Below, piece by piece: positions 1 through 6,062 of a DNA stretch of 44,868 bases (position 1 is its first letter; each line of letters begins with the position of its first letter). The translations under genes and the position numbers were made by a program. The notes under the pieces are model-generated. The model did not search any database. It was not told the DNA's origin and saw only the letters and a list, made by a program, of their open reading frames with translations. The DNA comes from an uncultured Candidatus Saccharibacteria bacterium. Lineage in GTDB: Bacteria; Patescibacteriota; Minisyncoccia; Phycocordibacterales; Phycocordibacteraceae. Location: contig CAZQGQ010000004.1 in the NCBI GenBank assembly GCA_964593365.1, positions 1-44,868 on the forward strand, given 5' to 3'.

Positions 1-59
1 CTTGAACCCCCGACCTTCTCAGTGTAAATGAGTTGCTCTACCAACTGAGCTAAGCGCGC
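1..59 (-). tRNA. tRNA-Val(TAC), 3' end cut by window edge
   Basis: Reverse complement GCGCGCT-TA-GCTCAGTTGGTAGAGC (D arm), anticodon loop TT-TAC-AC, T loop GGTTCAAG at the edge. Confidence 0.9.
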
Positions 60-99
60 TTACAGAGCTACCATAACTGAAATAGTGTATTTTTGAAAG

Positions 100-375
100 A
101 TGGAGCGTCTTGAAGCGATCGTATACGGACGGGTACAGGGTGTTATGTACCGCGATTTCACCTGCCGAAAGGCGAGGGGCCTGCGCCTTACGGGTGCTGT
201 GCAAAATCTCCCGGACGGCACGGTGAGAGTGGTCGCAGAAGGGAAGCGGGGAGATCTCGAACAGCTCCTTTCGCGCCTTAATCACGGGCCCTTGTTTGCG
301 AACGTTGAGCGCGTTGATTCTACCTGGAGCAAAGCGACCGGAGACCTCGGTTCCTTTGCCATTTGCTATAAGTGA
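100..375 (+). CDS. acyP: Acylphosphatase
   Basis: GRVQGVMYR and GAVQNLPDGTV motifs, 91 aa. Confidence 0.92.
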   Translation: MERLEAIVYGRVQGVMYRDFTCRKARGLRLTGAVQNLPDGTVRVVAEGKRGDLEQLLSRLNHGPLFANVERVDSTWSKATGDLGSFAICYK

Positions 376-389
376 CATAGGGTAGCTCT

Positions 390-1130
390 ATGGACCTCCC
401 GATCATCTACGAAGACGACCAGCTCGTCGCAGTGAACAAGCCCTCCGGCGTCATGACGCACGGGGATGGGCGAACCAAGGAAGAAACGGCAAGCGACTGG
501 TTTGCAAAAAAATATCCGGACAGCAAGGACGTTGGAGAGACGCAGCGGCTTCCAGACGGAAGCGAGCTTGCGCGCCCAGGCATCGTGCACCGGCTTGATC
601 GGGAAACCTCAGGCGTCCTTGTCTTTGCGAAAACTGCTGAAGCGCATGCGTTTTTGAAAGAAGCTTTCCATAACCGACAGGCAAAGAAAACGTATCTCGC
701 GTTTGTATACGGCGTTCCGAAAGAGAAGAAGGGAACGATTGATTTTTCGATCGGGCGGTCGCGCCAGGATTTTCGCCTCCGTTCCGCGCAACCGAAAGCA
801 AAAGGGATACTTCGCGACGCGATCACGCGCTATGAGGTCATCGCAGACGACGGCAAGCACTCGCTATTGAAAGTGATGCCAGAGACCGGCCGTACCCACC
901 AGATCCGCGTGCACCTGAAAGCGATACACCATCCCGTCGTCTGCGACCCTCTGTATGCTCCAAAGCGCGACTGCACCCTCGGGTTTAAGCGGCTTGGCCT
1001 TCATGCGTATCGCCTGGAGCTCCCGCTCCCATCAGGCAAAACGCTCGCCCTTGAGGCTCCCGTTCCTGAGGATTTGCTGCAGGGACTAAGCTCATTCCCG
1101 GGTAAAGAAGCGCTTATTGCCTCGACATAA
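390..1130 (+). CDS. RluA/RluD-family RNA pseudouridine synthase
   Basis: VNKPSG, HRLDRETSG (catalytic Asp), TGRTHQIRVH, LHAYRL motifs. Confidence 0.93.
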   Translation: MDLPIIYEDDQLVAVNKPSGVMTHGDGRTKEETASDWFAKKYPDSKDVGETQRLPDGSELARPGIVHRLDRETSGVLVFAKTAEAHAFLKEAFHNRQAKKTYLAFVYGVPKEKKGTIDFSIGRSRQDFRLRSAQPKAKGILRDAITRYEVIADDGKHSLLKVMPETGRTHQIRVHLKAIHHPVVCDPLYAPKRDCTLGFKRLGLHAYRLELPLPSGKTLALEAPVPEDLLQGLSSFPGKEALIAST

Positions 1131-1156
1131 GAGGCGTGTTAGAGTTCCCCCACGTT

Positions 1157-1651
1157 ATGGAAGTCATCACTCCCGTTAAGGTAGAGGAGCGCCAAAAGAT
1201 CGGTATAAAGCCCGGGGATACTGTCCGTGTCCACCAGAAGATCGTTGAAAAGGGAAAGACCCGCACGCAGGTCTTCGAAGGACTTGTCCTTGCAACCAAG
1301 CACGGCTCTGAGGCAGGTGCTACGTTCACGGTCCGTGCGACCCTCTCTGGCATTGGCGTTGAACGTATCTTCCCCCTCTATGCTCCGTTCATCGAGAAGA
1401 TTGAGATCGTAAAGCGCTCGAAAGTCCGCCGCGCAAAGCTCTACTTCATCCGCGATAAGGTTGCCCGCGAGGTACGCCGCCAGCTCCGCAACATGCGCAT
1501 GATGAACGTCTCAACCGACGACTTTGCCGAAAAGGAAGTGCCTGCAGAGGCTCCTGAGGAAGTCGTCGCAGAAGAAGTCGTTGAAACTCCGGTAGTAGCA
1601 GAAGAGGCAGCAGCTCCTGCAGAGGAGACCGAAGAAGTGAAGGCTGCCTAG
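1157..1651 (+). CDS. rplS: 50S ribosomal protein L19 with acidic C-terminal extension
   Basis: PGDTVRVH, QVFEG, GVERIFP, KVRRAKLYFIR; ATG at 1157 preferred over 1136. Confidence 0.95.
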   Translation: MEVITPVKVEERQKIGIKPGDTVRVHQKIVEKGKTRTQVFEGLVLATKHGSEAGATFTVRATLSGIGVERIFPLYAPFIEKIEIVKRSKVRRAKLYFIRDKVAREVRRQLRNMRMMNVSTDDFAEKEVPAEAPEEVVAEEVVETPVVAEEAAAPAEETEEVKAA

Positions 1652-1693
1652 TTTGTAAAACGCTCGATCGGTCGGTATAGTACGCACACACCT

Positions 1694-1778
1694 GCCCAGG
1701 TGTTGAAATTGGTAGACAAGCTACCTTGAGGTGGTAGTGCCGAAAGGCATGGAGGTTCGAGTCCTCTCCTGGGCACCA
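1694..1778 (+). tRNA. tRNA-Leu(GAG)
   Basis: Acceptor GCCCAGG/CCTGGGC-A-CCA, anticodon arm CTACC-TTGAGGT-GGTAG, long variable arm, GGTTCGAGTCC. Confidence 0.96.
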
Positions 1779-1788
1779 TTTGGCGAAA

Positions 1789-1831
1789 GAAAATAAGAGG
1801 ACCCCACGCGACATCACGAAGCGTAGGGCCC
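1789..1831 (-). terminator. Terminal hairpin/terminator of the Trp unit
   Basis: Minus strand GGGCCCTACGC-TTCGTGATGTC-GCGTGGGGTCC followed by TCTTATTTT. Confidence 0.7.
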
Positions 1832-1866
1832 AATAGTTATTGCCTGTTCAGGCTAGTGCCAACTGC

Positions 1867-1875
1867 TTACCACAT
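1867..1875 (-). CDS. Two-codon minigene Met-Trp-stop
   Basis: Minus strand AAGGGAG-7 nt-ATG TGG TAA GC, downstream of a Trp attenuator; positional twin of ATG CAC TAA GC at 2749-2757. Confidence 0.65.
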   Translation of the reverse strand: MW

Positions 1876-1916
1876 AGTTGGTCTCCCTTCATAAGGCTGG
1901 TCTGTAAGGTAGACGC

Positions 1917-1995
1917 AAAACCCCTCCGTAAGGAGGGGGTTGGCTTTATGCGTGGTTCAGGCATCAAGACAATCCTCTCCTTAGGAGGGGATGGT
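1917..1995 (-). promoter_or_regulatory. Transcription attenuator (Trp-responsive)
   Basis: Segment 1 1995-1984, segment 2 1980-1961, segment 3 1951-1932 (16 of 20 positions pair with segment 2); terminator AACCCCCTCC-TTAC-GGAGGGGTTTT 1941-1917. Confidence 0.8.
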
Positions 1996-2052
1996 CCAGG
2001 CCCACATGCCAAAACGCGCGGCAGAAATGGAAGCGGTGGCGTTTCGATTCAT
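1981..2052 (-). CDS. Trp leader peptide MNRNATASISAARFGMWAWTIPS (23 aa)
   Basis: ATG 7 nt after a -10 box; TGG-GCC-TGG directly before attenuator segment 1; stop codon directly before segment 2. Confidence 0.75.
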   Translation of the reverse strand: MNRNATASISAARFGMWAWTIPS

Positions 2053-2059
2053 TAGTACT

Positions 2060-2087
2060 ACCCTAGCAATTCCAGTAGAGTCGTCAA
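2060..2087 (-). promoter_or_regulatory. Sigma70-type promoter of the Trp unit
   Basis: TTGACG-16 nt-TAGGGT with extended TGn. Confidence 0.65.
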
Positions 2088-2124
2088 GCCACAGCGAATA
2101 GCCCAAAACTGCTATAGTTTGCGT

Positions 2125-2682
2125 ATGACGAGCAGCATTCAAGACAAGATAGCCCTCTTCGAGCGTGTATTGGCTGAAGTCCCCGAACTTCGCTATGCAG
2201 GCGATCCCATCCTTCGAACGCCAGCAAAAAGCGTGGCCTTGGAAGAAGGTCTTTTGATAGGGAAGCGGCTGGAAGAGGTACTGCTTCGCTTCCGTGCGAT
2301 TACTGGCGTTGGACGAGGGCTTGCAGCTCCGCAAATTGGAGAAGGTGCTTCTGTTTTTATTACGTACGTAGATGACACGGTTGAGACATTCATCAATCCC
2401 CGCATCGTTTCGACATCTGACACGAACAATATGTACAAAGAGCTTTGCATGAGCGTTGGCATTCTTGCAGCTGAAGTTGAGCGGGCAGAGGAAATACAGA
2501 TGGAGTGGACGGACGCTGAAGGGAACTCGCGCTCTGGGACTTTCAGTGGTTTTCTTGCGCGCCTCTATCAGCACGAGGAAGCCCATTTGCAGGGTCGTTT
2601 GAATATAGACGAGGCTACGCCAGGGGGAATTGAGTTTGCCACCTTTGACCCGCTCCAGGAAAAATTGCGACCGGTGAAATAA
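2125..2682 (+). CDS. def: Peptide deformylase (divergent motifs)
   Basis: GRGLAAPQIG, FINPRI, ELCMS (canonical EGCLS), QHEEAHLQG (HExxH); ATG 6 nt after TG-C-TATAGT. Confidence 0.88.
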   Translation: MTSSIQDKIALFERVLAEVPELRYAGDPILRTPAKSVALEEGLLIGKRLEEVLLRFRAITGVGRGLAAPQIGEGASVFITYVDDTVETFINPRIVSTSDTNNMYKELCMSVGILAAEVERAEEIQMEWTDAEGNSRSGTFSGFLARLYQHEEAHLQGRLNIDEATPGGIEFATFDPLQEKLRPVK

Positions 2683-2723
2683 AAGAAGCCCACGCAACGA
2701 CTAACGAAGTCGCGTGGGCTTCT
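2679..2723 (-). terminator. Terminal hairpin/terminator of the His unit
   Basis: Minus strand AGAAGCCCACGC...GCGTGGGCTTCT followed by TTTATTT; may also terminate def on the plus strand. Confidence 0.75.
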
Positions 2724-2748
2724 GGCTCATTGAGCTTGGCGGTTTAGC

Positions 2749-2757
2749 TTAGTGCAT
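2749..2757 (-). CDS. Two-codon minigene Met-His-stop
   Basis: Minus strand GGAGG-5 nt-ATG CAC TAA GC, downstream of a His attenuator. Confidence 0.65.
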   Translation of the reverse strand: MH

Positions 2758-2803
2758 TGTCGCCTCCACTTTCGGGCCTTCCGTTTTATGGATTAACGAA
2801 TTG

Positions 2804-2898
2804 AACCCCTCGTCACTTGCGTGAGGAGGGGGCTATCTTCATGACACTCATCAAGACAATCCTCTCCGCGCGCGTGACGCCGGATGGTGCAGTTTATG
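2804..2898 (-). promoter_or_regulatory. Transcription attenuator (His-responsive) overlapping the 3' end of the repressor gene
   Basis: His codons at 2898-2896 and 2889-2884; segment 2 2867-2848 (19 nt identical to the Trp unit); segment 3 2844-2825; hairpin 2834-2804 with a GCAA loop and a weak U tract. Confidence 0.72.
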
Positions 2899-3162
2899 CA
2901 TCATCATTTTGTAACCGCCTTCTCCTTCCTGGAGCCACTTCGATACGCGAGCAACGGTCGTTGAGCTAAAGCCCGTTTTCTTCTCGATCTCGGTGTAGGG
3001 AACGTGCTTTGAAAGGAGCTCTGCCGTCTGGAAGCGCTTAGCGAACTCCGTGATCTCGCCTTCGGTCATAAGGTCGCGCAAAAAGCGTCGAACCTCATCC
3101 GGAGTTTCAAGGGCGAGCAGGGACTCGATAAGGCGGCGGTTTTCTTTCAAGGTCCAATTCAT
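2851..3162 (-). CDS. YerC/YecD (HisR), TrpR-like DNA-binding repressor with His-rich C-terminus
   Basis: FLRDLMTEGE...YTEIEKKTGFSSTTVARVSKWL..G.GGY matches the YerC/TrpR-related pattern; tail MMMHKLHHPASRARRGLS. Confidence 0.88.
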   Translation of the reverse strand: MNWTLKENRRLIESLLALETPDEVRRFLRDLMTEGEITEFAKRFQTAELLSKHVPYTEIEKKTGFSSTTVARVSKWLQEGEGGYKMMMHKLHHPASRARRGLS

Positions 3163-3169
3163 CAAGAGG

Positions 3170-3199
3170 CACTTTACTAGGGTAAAGTGAGCGTGTCAA
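3170..3199 (-). promoter_or_regulatory. Promoter TTGACA-17-TAAAGT with overlapping 20-bp palindromic operator
   Basis: -35 at 3199-3194, -10 at 3176-3171; palindrome CACTTTAC-TAGG-GTAAAGTG at 3170-3189. Confidence 0.85.
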
Positions 3200-3244
3200 G
3201 CTGTCTTCCGGACCCTCTGTATTCGTGATATAACCACAACACAT

Positions 3245-3321
3245 GGCGGCCTTAGCTCAGCTGGTAGAGCTCCGGTTTGTGGTACCGGCGGTCGTGGGTT
3301 CGAGCCCCACAGGTCGCCCCA
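3245..3321 (+). tRNA. tRNA-His(GTG)
   Basis: G-1 followed by GCGGCCT acceptor pairing with AGGTCGC-C-CCA; anticodon arm CCGGT-TTGTGGT-ACCGG. Confidence 0.96.
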
Positions 3322-3322
3322 T

Positions 3323-3706
3323 ATGAAATCATTCATAGAAGAGTTCCGAACATTCGCGCTTCGCGGCAACGCGCTAGATCTTGCCGTGGGCGTTGTCATA
3401 GGTGCCGCCTTCAACAGCATCGTCACTTCGCTTGTCACGAACGTACTCACTCCTCCCTTGGGGCTCATGATCGGGGGCGTTAATTTCAGTGAGCTTGTCA
3501 TACCTATCGGCGGAACAGCGAGCATCCAGTACGGGCTCTTCGTGCAGGCGATCGTGAGCTTCGTCATCACCGCGTTCGCTCTCTTCCTCCTCATCAAGCT
3601 CATCAATAAGTTCCTTCGCAAAGCTAATACCGAGCCGCAGGCGCCCGCCCCTAAGTCCCCAGAGCTTCTGGTGCTTGAGGAGATCCGGGACGAGCTGAAG
3701 AAATAA
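3323..3706 (+). CDS. mscL: Large-conductance mechanosensitive channel
   Basis: EFRTFALRGNALDLAVGVVIGAAF, YGLF, LEEIRDEL. Confidence 0.96.
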   Translation: MKSFIEEFRTFALRGNALDLAVGVVIGAAFNSIVTSLVTNVLTPPLGLMIGGVNFSELVIPIGGTASIQYGLFVQAIVSFVITAFALFLLIKLINKFLRKANTEPQAPAPKSPELLVLEEIRDELKK

Positions 3707-3724
3707 CGAGGTATACTTTTCTCT

Positions 3725-4384
3725 ATGAAAACACTTGCCGCAGGCGTCGTCCTTATTCTCTTGCTCGGGTTCGCCGGATTCTTTTATCGAAACGTTGCGG
3801 AGCAGACCGCTACTCCCCAGATGGCCTGCACGCTTGAGGCGAAGATCTGCCCAGACGGCTCCTCCGTCGGGCGCACAGGTCCTTCGTGCGAGTTTGCTGC
3901 CTGCCCGCTTCCTGGCGTTGAACTGCAAGATGCAGGCCTGGCGTTCGTTATCCCAGCTGACTACGCTCCAGACAACGCTGCTCCTGGCGCAGACCTAGCT
4001 ACCCTCGCTTCGTTCGTAAAGCCTTCGCTTACCGGAGGCGTGCCCCACGTGATTAGCGTTAGCCGCTACCAGATTCCGGAAGGGGAGACGGCAGAGGATG
4101 TCATGCTCGCACATACTCGCTACCAGCCAGCTGATATGCAGGCGGAAGACTTTGAACGCTTCGAGACCGTTCTCATTAACGGAAAGGAATTTAAAGGCAC
4201 CGTCATCGAGCGTTTTGAAGCGCAGATCCAGAGCGCGTACTACCTTGCACGCGGAGCAGACGTCCTTCGTTTTGATGTTATCGAGCACGACGTCGTTGAT
4301 TGGATGGAGCCAGCGCTTGAAGTCAGCAAGCTTCCCGAGCACGCGGCTTTCCTGAAGATGCTCGGAACGATCGAGCTTCGCTAG
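3725..4384 (+). CDS. Membrane-anchored exported protein with Cys-rich motif
   Basis: N-terminal hydrophobic helix, then CTLEAKICPDGSSVGRTGPSCEFAACP. Confidence 0.7.
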   Translation: MKTLAAGVVLILLLGFAGFFYRNVAEQTATPQMACTLEAKICPDGSSVGRTGPSCEFAACPLPGVELQDAGLAFVIPADYAPDNAAPGADLATLASFVKPSLTGGVPHVISVSRYQIPEGETAEDVMLAHTRYQPADMQAEDFERFETVLINGKEFKGTVIERFEAQIQSAYYLARGADVLRFDVIEHDVVDWMEPALEVSKLPEHAAFLKMLGTIELR

Positions 4385-5143
4385 TTACTCAAGCACAAGA
4401 AGTGCGACCATCACGAGAAGCCCAACGCCAAGGGCAAGAAGCTGAAGCGCCGAGTGGCGGACACGCGTCGTTTTATGCAGTTCAGGCACCAGGTCGGCAA
4501 GTGCGATGTAGATAAAGTTTCCAGCTGCGAATGCCGCGATAAGCGGGATGAGCATCTCGTGTATTCCGGCGAGCATGAAGGCAAGCCCGAGCCCTACGAA
4601 AGCAGTGAGTCCCGATAGGAAGTTCACGAAGAGCGCCTTTGCGCGCGAGTAGCCTGCGTGCAGCAAGAGTCCGAAGTCGCCGATTTCCTGCGGGATCTCA
4701 TGGAGCGCGATTGCAAGCGTGGTTGCGATACCGACTTCGGTCGAGACCATGAATGCGGCCCCGATAGCCATACCGTCGATAAGATTGTGCATGCCGTCAG
4801 AGACAAGCACGAGGTGTCCGACCGGATGGATCTGCGCGTGTTCGGGAGAGAACTCCTCATCGCCGTGGCTGTGGTGCCAGTGGAGGAATTTCTCAAGCAC
4901 GAAGAAGCTGAAGATTCCCGCAAGGATAAGAAGCGACACCAGAAGAGGATTGCCGGTCTCCTCAAACGCTTCTGGGATGAGGTGGATGAATGCGTCTCCA
5001 AGCAGGGCGCCTGCTGCAAGCGAGATGAGGAGGAAAAGTATCCGGCGAAGCAAGTTCTCCTTGAGAGAAAGGGTTGCGATACCGATAAGCGATACGAGGC
5101 TTATGGCAAGAACGGCGAGGGCGCCTGCTGCAAAGGGAGTCAT
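4385..5143 (-). CDS. ZIP-family zinc/metal transporter
   Basis: HLIPEA, His-rich loop HWHHSH, DGMHNLIDG, LHEIPQEIGDF. Confidence 0.93.
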   Translation of the reverse strand: MTPFAAGALAVLAISLVSLIGIATLSLKENLLRRILFLLISLAAGALLGDAFIHLIPEAFEETGNPLLVSLLILAGIFSFFVLEKFLHWHHSHGDEEFSPEHAQIHPVGHLVLVSDGMHNLIDGMAIGAAFMVSTEVGIATTLAIALHEIPQEIGDFGLLLHAGYSRAKALFVNFLSGLTAFVGLGLAFMLAGIHEMLIPLIAAFAAGNFIYIALADLVPELHKTTRVRHSALQLLALGVGLLVMVALLVLE

Positions 5144-5249
5144 GCAAGCGAGTATAGCGCACTGAAGAAATATTGGTTTTTGGCTCCTGCACGGCCAAAA
5201 AAGGCCATATGATATACTTTTTCTACATTACTTAATCACCTTTATATCT

Positions 5250-6062
5250 ATGAATGAGACTTGGCAGGAAACAATCGTGCGTATCAGCAAGCCAGTGCGC
5301 TACAGCGCAGCAGCGGCGCTCTCGCTTCTCGCACTCTTCCTCTTGGTGCAGACCTTGGACGCATTGACGGACTTCGGACGCTCTGACAATCCGTACATGA
5401 ACACGATTACGGTTGAAGGAACCGGCAAGGCCGCTTCAATCCCGAATCTTGCTGTCGTCTCGTTCTCAGTGACTGAGCGCGGAACAACTGTTGCTGAAGC
5501 TCAGACCAAGGCAACGGGCAAGACCGACGCAGCGCTCGCTGCAGTTGAAGGAATGGGCATTGAAGAAAAGGACGTGAAGACGACTGCATACAACGTGTAT
5601 CCGCAGTACGAGAACATCCAGCCCTGCTACGGCATGGTCTGCCCTGAGATCGCTCGCAACCCGCGCATCATCGGCTACGAAGTCTCGCAGACGGTAGAGG
5701 TAAAGGTCCGCGACACCGCGAAGGCAGGAGACGTGCTTCAGGCACTCGGTACGTTGAATGTGCAGAACATCTCAGGACCGAACTTCACGGTTGATGAGGA
5801 TGACGCTATTCGAAACGCCGCTCGCGAAGAGGCAATCGAACAGGCTAAAGCAAAGGCAAAGGTGCTCGCCGACGAGCTTGGCGTTCGACTTGGAAAGGTC
5901 ATCTCGTTCTACGAGAACAACCAGTACCCGTATTACGAAGAGGGCTTCAACGGGGCTAAGGGAGGTATGGCGATGGACGCTATGGCGCAATCAGCTCCTC
6001 GTCTTCCAGCAGGAGAGCAGGAGACCGAGATCTCTGTCTCGATCACCTACGAGATCCGCTAA
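5250..6062 (+). CDS. SIMPL/DUF541 domain protein
   Basis: ITVEGTGKA..PNLA, AKAKAKVLADELGVRLG, VSITYEI; N-terminal membrane anchor. Confidence 0.88.
   Translation: MNETWQETIVRISKPVRYSAAAALSLLALFLLVQTLDALTDFGRSDNPYMNTITVEGTGKAASIPNLAVVSFSVTERGTTVAEAQTKATGKTDAALAAVEGMGIEEKDVKTTAYNVYPQYENIQPCYGMVCPEIARNPRIIGYEVSQTVEVKVRDTAKAGDVLQALGTLNVQNISGPNFTVDEDDAIRNAAREEAIEQAKAKAKVLADELGVRLGKVISFYENNQYPYYEEGFNGAKGGMAMDAMAQSAPRLPAGEQETEISVSITYEIR

Follow-up and report, generated by a model that had tools for sequence, protein, structure and literature searches.

Transcription attenuation by a leader peptide is textbook regulation, known almost exclusively from free-living bacteria, where it precedes operons for amino-acid biosynthesis or related functions. 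In E. coli trpL, as in the his, phe, leu, thr and ilv attenuators, a leader ORF carries its regulatory codons just before or within RNA segment 1, the stop codon lets a terminating ribosome mask segment 2, the pairings 1:2, 2:3 and 3:4 are mutually exclusive, and the terminator consists of a GC stem followed by a U tract. The Bacillus subtilis anti-TRAP operon opens with rtpLP, a leader peptide with Trp codons, followed by the small zinc-binding protein AT, under T-box and translational control, while the TnaC arrest peptide relies on a conserved set of Trp, Asp and a last Pro, whose distances to the stop codon are fixed, and on Rho-dependent termination. About regulation in candidate-phyla-radiation bacteria, to our knowledge, almost nothing is known. 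For Sinorhizobium meliloti, two reports describe an attenuator-derived sRNA, rnTrpL, and a leader peptide, peTrpL, that act in trans (PMC7968998, PMC7298713). In Firmicutes, according to a passage of a further report, his genes are controlled either by HisR, the histidine-dependent repressor also named YerC, or by leader peptides with 3–5 His codons, the two being alternatives in different lineages that both act on his genes (PMC9413887).

The locus described here lies in a 44,868-nucleotide contig (CAZQGQ010000004.1; "the window" denotes this whole stretch) of an uncultured Candidatus Saccharibacteria genome of 716,520 bases in 47 contigs, with 53% GC and a rated completeness of 99.7%. The local gene order on the plus strand comprises an rluA-like gene (390–1130), rplS (1136–1651) and tRNA-Leu(GAG) (1694–1778), after which a spacer of 340 nt (1779–2118) leads to def (plus strand, ATG at 2125 to 2682). 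Beyond def follow a TrpR-family, YerC/HisR-like gene on the minus strand (2851–3165; Pfam Trp_repressor, E 6e-20) and tRNA-His on the plus strand (3246–3321), then mscL. All leader features of the spacer are on the minus strand, so oriented that tRNA-Leu(GAG) is convergent to the leader. Logan contigs from four microbial-mat DNA runs contain the stretch and match it at every base (0 differences), an example being a 943-nt contig that spans 1753–2695; one of these runs is possibly the source sample, and no RNA run was among the sequencing runs that match the stretch.

Within this spacer, the minus strand holds a leader unit with the E. coli features listed above. Its leader ORF (MNRNATASISAARFGMWAWTIPS, 1981–2052) consists of 23 codons and a TAA, with the ATG at 2052–2050 and the TAA at 1983–1981, and its peptide ends in ...F-G-M-W-A-W-T-I-P-S; in the ORF listing, it forms the end of an ORF of 238 aa that runs antisense to def. 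Two of the 23 codons specify Trp, in the run TGG-GCC-TGG (Trp-Ala-Trp, 1996–2004; TGG at 2004–2002 and 1998–1996), and segment 1 (AUCCCCUCC, 1984–1992) doubles as the I-P-S codons that close the ORF. Segment 2 (GGAGAGGAUUGUCUUGAUG, 1962–1980), which contains an AUG that never varies as well as an SD-like run, can partner with segment 1 or segment 3, and segment 3 (CAUAAAGCCAACCCCCUCC, 1932–1950) in turn with segment 2, as the antiterminator, or with segment 4 (GGAGGGG, 1927–1921), as an intrinsic terminator whose U tract (UUUU, 1920–1917) has only four U. The initial annotation had proposed a 23-aa leader with TGG-GCC-TGG, segment 1, the stop and segment 2 in this order, as well as a GC-rich 3:4 stem with a U tract; the former is borne out at 2052–1962 of the minus strand, and the latter coincides with the site found by a terminator scan (1938 to 1921, minus strand; 7 pairs, 6 of them GC, loop of 4, tail TTTTGCGTCT).

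A second terminator-like hairpin closes the minus-strand unit at 1801–1822 (8 pairs, 3 GC and a loop of 6 in the scan, tail CCTCTTATTT), within the 138 nt that separate 1917 from the end of tRNA-Leu at 1778, close to the approximately 130 nt first estimated. Overall, 5 terminator-like sites occur in 1400–2800, against 1.7 ± 1.3 in shuffles. At the other end, a putative leader promoter can be read from the sequence: a -35-like hexamer TTGACG (2082–2087, minus strand) stands 16 nt upstream of a -10-like hexamer TAGGGT (2060–2065), which ends 7 nt before the ATG. TAGGGT matches the -10 consensus at only 3 of 6 positions, and this is why the promoter is absent from the consensus scan listing.

The predicted folds agree with a switch between exclusive structures. 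The 191-nt minus strand folds at -63 kcal/mol (z -2.46), a value equalled by 2 of 200 shuffles, and sub-folds of 1:2, 2:3 and 3:4 give -12.3, -16.5 and -17.1 kcal/mol, respectively. Segment 2 had been said to pair with segment 1 or with segment 3 (16 of 20 positions); both pairings hold, with 15 of 19 positions for 2:3 when counted by hand. Folding of the alternative states, which the initial annotation had proposed as a check, came out as expected when the 5' part was masked: for RNA from 1985 on, as with a ribosome at the second UGG, the MFE structure is the antiterminator with segment 4 unpaired, and for RNA from 1970 on, as with a ribosome at the UAA, it includes the 3:4 terminator. The unmasked whole RNA at equilibrium forms one long hairpin of 2:3 plus 1:4, which is expected because segments 1 and 3, and likewise segments 2 and 4, resemble each other.

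We evaluated whether this arrangement has relatives, starting from an exact repeat within the window (19 of 19 bases identical between 1962–1980 and 2849–2867), which was the source of the search motif. Within the genus, the 18-mer motif with up to 2 mismatches matched 14 of 200 other genomes, 9 of them clearly the element, and a reversed control matched 0. With a covariance model built from 10 leader units (R1), the window reached 92.3 bits on its minus strand (E 8.9e-22) as opposed to 36.5 bits on its plus strand, a homology that excludes a chance arrangement. The element is near-palindromic, and its opposite strand also aligns and scores. A plus-strand reading, with an SD-sequestering hairpin and a 35-aa ORF (MRGSG...), was ruled out by the difference between these scores (92 against 36 bits) and is further countered by the promoter, ORF and U tracts, all of which are on the minus strand.

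Applied to 150 sampled genomes of the genus, R1 matched 12 at E ≤ 0.001, comprising eight strong matches (77–122 bits), one His-type, one plausible distant relative and two terminators only, and the element is present in roughly 10 of the 150. Among 150 sampled genomes from the rest of the order, there were two weak matches, one of them plausible. Weak R1 matches in G160, G005 and G291 proved to be terminator hairpins only, and G008 and G289, apparent distant His-type relatives, were excluded from the counts. An exact-pattern scan of metagenome contigs yielded 24 loci, 23 of which are the element; the remaining one (L183) was dropped as a chance match within a coding region. A scan of genome contigs with the unspecific pattern GGAGAGGATTGNNNTGATG returned at least 121 stretches, with one element (L085, Candidatus Paceibacterota) among the 80 examined, and L094 and L110, among the matches listed for this pattern, reached 26–30 bits with R1. 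When the 340-nt spacer was compared in full with 40 relatives by BLAST, nothing matched at E ≤ 0.001, as the element is too short and too diverged, so that the motif and the covariance model were needed. Likewise, Rfam cmscan of 1–6000 (both strands, E ≤ 1) found nothing in 1779–2118, and the sole Rfam leader match in 1–6000, Leu_leader at 21 bits where the gathering score is 50, corresponds to a terminator hairpin at 2682–2747. Judged by title or abstract, no attenuation paper was found among the matches listed for candidate phyla radiation, Parcubacteria or Patescibacteria. This genome holds two copies of the element only, and a reading as a repeat or mobile element was dropped on that ground. 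The family, as delineated by these searches, appears to be previously undescribed, outside Rfam, and present in a minority of the genomes of Paceibacterota, which belong to the candidate phyla radiation.

Both alternative structures are conserved across the family. In an alignment of 34 rows (A4), restricted to true-strand matches and leaving out the duplicates L166, L169, L184 and L085 as well as L030 (the G008 match), the 16 pairs of the 2:3 antiterminator are formed in 94.3% of cells, 5 pairs (17 cells) having changed on both sides, with the limit that the columns of segment 2 and part of segment 3 were unable to vary because the metagenome loci had been fetched by an exact pattern fixing them; the compensatory changes were contributed by the columns left free and by the genus genomes found by the model. 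For comparison, partners slid by 1–3 columns pair in 41–60% of cells. The terminator state (1:2, the middle hairpin and 3:4) is paired in 83.0% of cells with 6 pairs changed on both sides, and its helices, taken singly over the 34 sequences, in 68.5% (1:2), 90.2% (middle) and 91.9% (3:4). None of 500 shuffles reached either structure, counts that overstate the support because the 34 sequences are mutually related. Tails are U-rich in all relatives. In segment 2, the stretch GGAGAGGAUUG with its AUG is more invariant than pairing alone would demand, in part as a result of the exact-pattern fetch.

The leader ORFs have the character of leader peptides. Relatives' leaders have 15–31 codons, and 18 of 26 distinct stand-alone leaders have an in-frame TGG, with TGG found 26 times in frame against 5 times out of frame. 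The usual codon block is Y-W-F-T-x-P-S or F-W-Y-W-F-T-x-P-S, in which T-x-P-S is encoded by segment 1, and the residues upstream of the aromatic block are free to vary. Past segment 1 the reading frame is not kept, three frames being in use, which indicates that this region is constrained as RNA rather than as protein. Relative to the first position of segment 2, all 26 stops fall between -3 and +30 nt, always ahead of segment 3. Four of the 26 leaders (L162, L170, L174 and L175) have neither Trp nor His-His. Given the conserved Y-W-F or F-W-Y-W-F block, what is sensed may be the aromatic amino acids as a group rather than Trp alone. The leader of the present copy has diverged from its relatives (WAW versus FWYWF) with every functional feature retained. 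A TAnnnT box that ends 5–9 nt before the leader ATG, with TTGnnn 16–18 nt further upstream, was seen for 24 of 27 stand-alone leaders; a box so near the ATG would imply a start of transcription that yields a leaderless mRNA. By reading, a TnaC-type peptide was set aside, since W-T-I-P-S-stop has no Asp, the stop position is variable in relatives, and the element has an intrinsic terminator and an antiterminator.

A sister type carries His codons on the same scaffold. HH or HHH replaces the aromatic block in 4 of the 26 stand-alone leaders (L009, L165, L179 and L027), and also in G008. Moreover, HH or HHH is present in 7 of 7 leaders that are fused to YerC-like genes, namely six metagenome loci and the second copy of this window; at these loci, the C-terminal end of a YerC-like protein (...LHH(H)......GRGLS-stop) stands in the place of the leader, and its UGA falls inside segment 2. 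In the window, this His-type copy (2797–2905, minus strand; R1 17.9 bits, E 0.006) overlaps the last 16 codons (MHKLHHPASRARRGLS, then stop) of the YerC/HisR-like gene, with CAC-CAT at 2889–2884, segment 2 at 2867–2849 and a terminator hairpin at about 2830–2804, and no gene lies behind it. A further resemblance, in which M-W-stop and M-H-stop after the Trp and His copies would form a matched pair, was not upheld, the downstream alignment being weak and out of register.

The two copies of the window differ from their relatives in what follows them, as a cis gene follows the leader in all relatives examined. There, the terminator is followed by an SD and a start codon, 27–61 nt past it in most cases and 152 nt in L005, that open an ORF of 55–300 aa. 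W-type leaders precede CxxC proteins of 55–80 aa that belong to no Pfam family, four YerC-fused units precede GNAT acetyltransferases into which a zinc ribbon is inserted, and other uncharacterised genes follow the remaining units. BLAST sorted the downstream proteins into at least 10 groups without relation to one another, none linked to Trp; they gave no match to the anti-TRAP Pfam at E ≤ 0.01, and for one of them the Protein Atlas offered nothing beyond generic look-alikes with a zinc ribbon, which fell short of its threshold for naming. Behind the Trp leader of this genome, the only ORF is the two-codon ATG-TGG-TAA (1875–1867), set 7 nt after an SD-like AGGGAG (1888–1883) and followed by the second terminator, and tblastn with the relatives' downstream proteins found no homologue in this genome. 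This AGGGAG-N7-ATG-TGG-TAA resembles the start region of the L012 gene. Because it stands at the site where the regulated gene starts in relatives, 1888–1867 is probably the remnant of such a gene, the simplest reading being an internal deletion of a gene of roughly 190 nt.

Nor do the hosts offer a corresponding pathway. The initial annotation had seen no trp operon behind the leader, and this holds for the genome as a whole: trpA, trpB, a chorismate-binding enzyme (trpE-like) and hisG were not found in this 99.7%-complete assembly, which has trpS, one tRNA-Trp and one tRNA-His. In five leader-bearing relatives, trpB was not found either. With no gene following here, the switch has no visible target of regulation.

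The reading that we favour, with moderate confidence, is a real ribosome-dependent transcription attenuator for Trp or aromatic amino acids that belongs to a new family and has been orphaned in this genome. Family conservation, compensatory changes, in-frame Trp codons and the His-type sister all lend support to the E. coli-like Trp attenuator first proposed from this sequence. The promoter would fire a leaderless mRNA that opens with the 23-codon leader ORF. When charged Trp-tRNA (in relatives possibly also Tyr- or Phe-tRNA) is scarce, the ribosome would stall at UGG-GCC-UGG and cover segment 1, upon which 2:3 would pair, the 3:4 terminator would be blocked and transcription would read through. 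When charged tRNA is plentiful, the ribosome would reach the UAA and cover segment 2, and 3:4 with its UUUU would end transcription at about 1917. In relatives, the device would control a small zinc-ribbon-like or other uncharacterised gene, and we regard the present unit as orphaned because that gene is reduced to SD-ATG-TGG-TAA before the second terminator. The products remaining to it would be the 23-aa peptide, a terminated leader RNA of ~135 nt and, whenever transcription reads through, an RNA of ~250 nt. Several observations count against this reading, including the weak -10 box TAGGGT and the lack of an SD, with translation presumably relying on leaderless initiation, along with the U tract of four U, the missing cis gene, the relatives' genes that are not linked to Trp, the four leaders with neither Trp nor His-His, and a conserved block that is Y-W-F and no pure run of Trp.

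An alternative reading is a leader that senses translation itself rather than the supply of Trp, with Y-W-F-T-x-P-S acting as an arrest or pausing peptide, or with the leader reporting translation stress (e.g., from ribosome-targeting antibiotics), and the same hairpin switch opening the gene. The block Y-W-F-T-x-P-S is kept as a peptide and not merely as Trp codons, the downstream genes are not amino-acid genes and at four YerC-fused loci are GNAT acetyltransferases, a group that includes drug-modifying enzymes, and 4 of the 26 leaders dispense with both Trp and His-His. However, the encoding of T-x-P-S by segment 1 means that its conservation is explained by RNA pairing, and the residues ahead of the aromatic block are variable. 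The attachment of the His-codon type to a HisR/YerC homologue favours codon-specific starvation sensing, as two different runs of rare codons on one RNA scaffold, of which one is linked with a regulator of histidine genes, fit codon-specific attenuation and not a shared arrest peptide. We regard the sensing of translation as such as unlikely.

The missing cis gene also raises two accounts that concern this copy in particular. Trans action of the rnTrpL/peTrpL type is the only use that we know of for an attenuator with nothing behind it, and the promoter, ORF, Trp codons and four segments are all intact here despite the lack of an ORF past the terminator. The unit could accordingly be a stand-alone gene for an sRNA and/or a 23-aa peptide acting in trans, with 3:4 as a mere terminator, for which the S. 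meliloti reports provide a precedent in a trans-acting attenuator RNA and leader peptide (PMC7968998, PMC7298713). We consider this quite unlikely, because all relatives examined have a cis gene, the alignments contain no conserved unpaired seed, and both the 5' part and the 2–3 loop vary among relatives. Alternatively, the unit may be a decaying relic in which the regulated gene was deleted and erosion of the leader is still to come, the hairpins doing no more than halting stray transcription in the interval from tRNA-Leu to def. The two-codon ORF in place of the relatives' gene, the lack of a homologue in the genome by tblastn, a -10 box weaker than those of relatives and a second window copy that likewise has no gene are in line with decay. 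Yet old debris is improbable where a 340-nt spacer of a 716-kb genome has retained a frame of 23 codons that is still open, both Trp codons, three compatible helices and the U tract, and the leader has diverged in its codons (WAW versus FWYWF) while every functional feature was kept. A relic, which would be compatible with the favoured attenuator on origin and differ from it on present activity alone, seems very unlikely to us.

For the attenuator that we favour, the mechanism would be classical, and what would be new is the family and its setting, with apparently leaderless mRNAs, hosts without the pathway and genes that are not biosynthetic, together with aromatic and His versions on one scaffold and the tail of a repressor-like gene used as a leader. 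Compared with E. coli trpL and the Rfam Trp_leader, His_leader and Leu_leader, the element has no Rfam match and an apparently leaderless mRNA without SD, no biosynthetic operon follows, trp genes were not found in the host, and the codons mix Trp, Tyr and Phe. A likeness to anti-TRAP may be seen in the order of a Trp-codon leader before a small Cys-rich protein, comparable to the relatives' 55–80 aa CxxC proteins, although the device here is a leader-peptide terminator switch and this genome has retained no protein of that kind. With HisR control in Firmicutes, the second copy has in common that it joins a YerC/HisR-like gene to His-His codons before the same hairpin switch; unlike there, the leader seems to consist of the final codons of the repressor-like ORF itself, hisG was not found, and GNAT or unknown genes follow at other loci. 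rnTrpL/peTrpL resembles the present case as a Trp attenuator whose leader RNA and peptide are products themselves, but the S. meliloti attenuator is reported still to precede trpE(G), whereas the element here has no cis gene (PMC7968998, PMC7298713).

A wider proposal, which we put forward tentatively as a possibility, is that Paceibacterota without amino-acid synthesis use a modular leaderless cassette with exchangeable sensor codons (Trp/Tyr/Phe, or His) to couple tRNA charging to zinc-ribbon, GNAT or other genes. In the His type, the tail of the HisR-like gene would be the leader. In the present genome, both cassettes lack cis genes and might persist through a trans-acting leader RNA or peptide, or through read-through antisense into tRNA-Leu/rplS and def.

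What is unusual is attenuation logic in candidate-phyla-radiation bacteria that lack those pathways, placed in front of tiny zinc-ribbon and other genes. Reduced and probably host-dependent cells may gauge the supply of charged tRNA directly and respond with uncharacterised genes. The family would provide an entry point for studying regulation in the candidate phyla radiation and could help to single out starvation-response genes, and the present copy may be either a fresh relic or an attenuator turned stand-alone RNA or peptide gene.

Segment 2 of the leader, the strand that can pair with either segment 1 or segment 3, contains GGAGAGGAUUG and an AUG 16 nt after its start (window 1962-1980, minus strand, in the Trp-type copy), and both are invariant or almost invariant across family members; part of this invariance reflects ascertainment by the search pattern. 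This constancy exceeds what pairing requires. The two elements look like a Shine–Dalgarno (SD) sequence and a start codon, and in 23 of the 34 aligned family sequences the AUG begins an open reading frame (ORF) of just 1–5 codons.

Two further minimal ORFs, each preceded by an SD-like run, lie downstream of the two copies in the window, i.e., ATG-TGG-TAA after the Trp-type leader (1867-1888 with its SD-like run, minus strand) and ATG-CAC-TAA after the His-type leader (2749-2767 with its SD-like run, minus strand). In both cases the internal codon agrees strikingly with the leader type, Trp in one and His in the other. This agreement may be a coincidence, however, since the two downstream regions align only weakly and out of register.

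In relatives (L005, L007, L008, L011-L014, and L016), W-type leaders, i.e., those with aromatic codons, are found in a syntenic context unlike the tRNA-Leu/def setting of the window. There, the order is a nucleoside-kinase-like gene, a small "MAYED...YYHYKHDP" gene, a NUDIX-like gene, the W-type leader, a small CxxC gene, and a convergent amino-acid-kinase-like gene, with all of these gene names taken from reading the translations rather than from a family search. In the window, def (start region 2113-2127, plus strand), like the mRNA of the Trp-type leader, appears to be leaderless: TATAGT (2113-2118) is followed 6 nt later by ATG at 2125, and there is no SD. A mechanical ORF list places the start at TTG 2119. 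A match to the Rfam family Leu_leader after def (2682-2747, minus strand) scores 21 bits (E 0.7), where the family's gathering score is 50, and corresponds solely to the bidirectional terminator hairpin there rather than to a leader. Elsewhere in the window, the ribosomal protein L19 gene (1136-1651, plus strand; 171 aa) carries an acidic, Ala/Glu-rich C-terminal extension of ~50 residues beyond its Pfam domain (residues 21–114), and a tRNA gene (1-59, minus strand; Rfam tRNA, 41.5 bits) is truncated at its 3' end by the contig end.

The His-type hairpin switch, the second copy in the window (2797-2905, minus strand), overlaps the 3' end of a YerC/HisR-like gene on the same strand (2851-3165), whose UGA falls within segment 2, and no gene lies downstream of this copy in the window. 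The final 16 codons of this repressor-like gene (MHKLHHPASRARRGLS-stop) match those of stand-alone His-type leaders. The same fusion occurs in six metagenome loci (L164, L167, L171, L176, L181, and L182), where GNAT or unknown genes lie downstream. In a relative (L187; G008:C41), a yerC-like gene is followed by a Rossmann-fold "LOG-like" ORF and a divergent His-type leader (MNKSLFKSVAHHTNSFARRGWL), the yerC-like gene and the leader being on the same strand, ~570 nt apart, with one gene in between. This arrangement is a further association of a YerC-like gene with a His-type leader.
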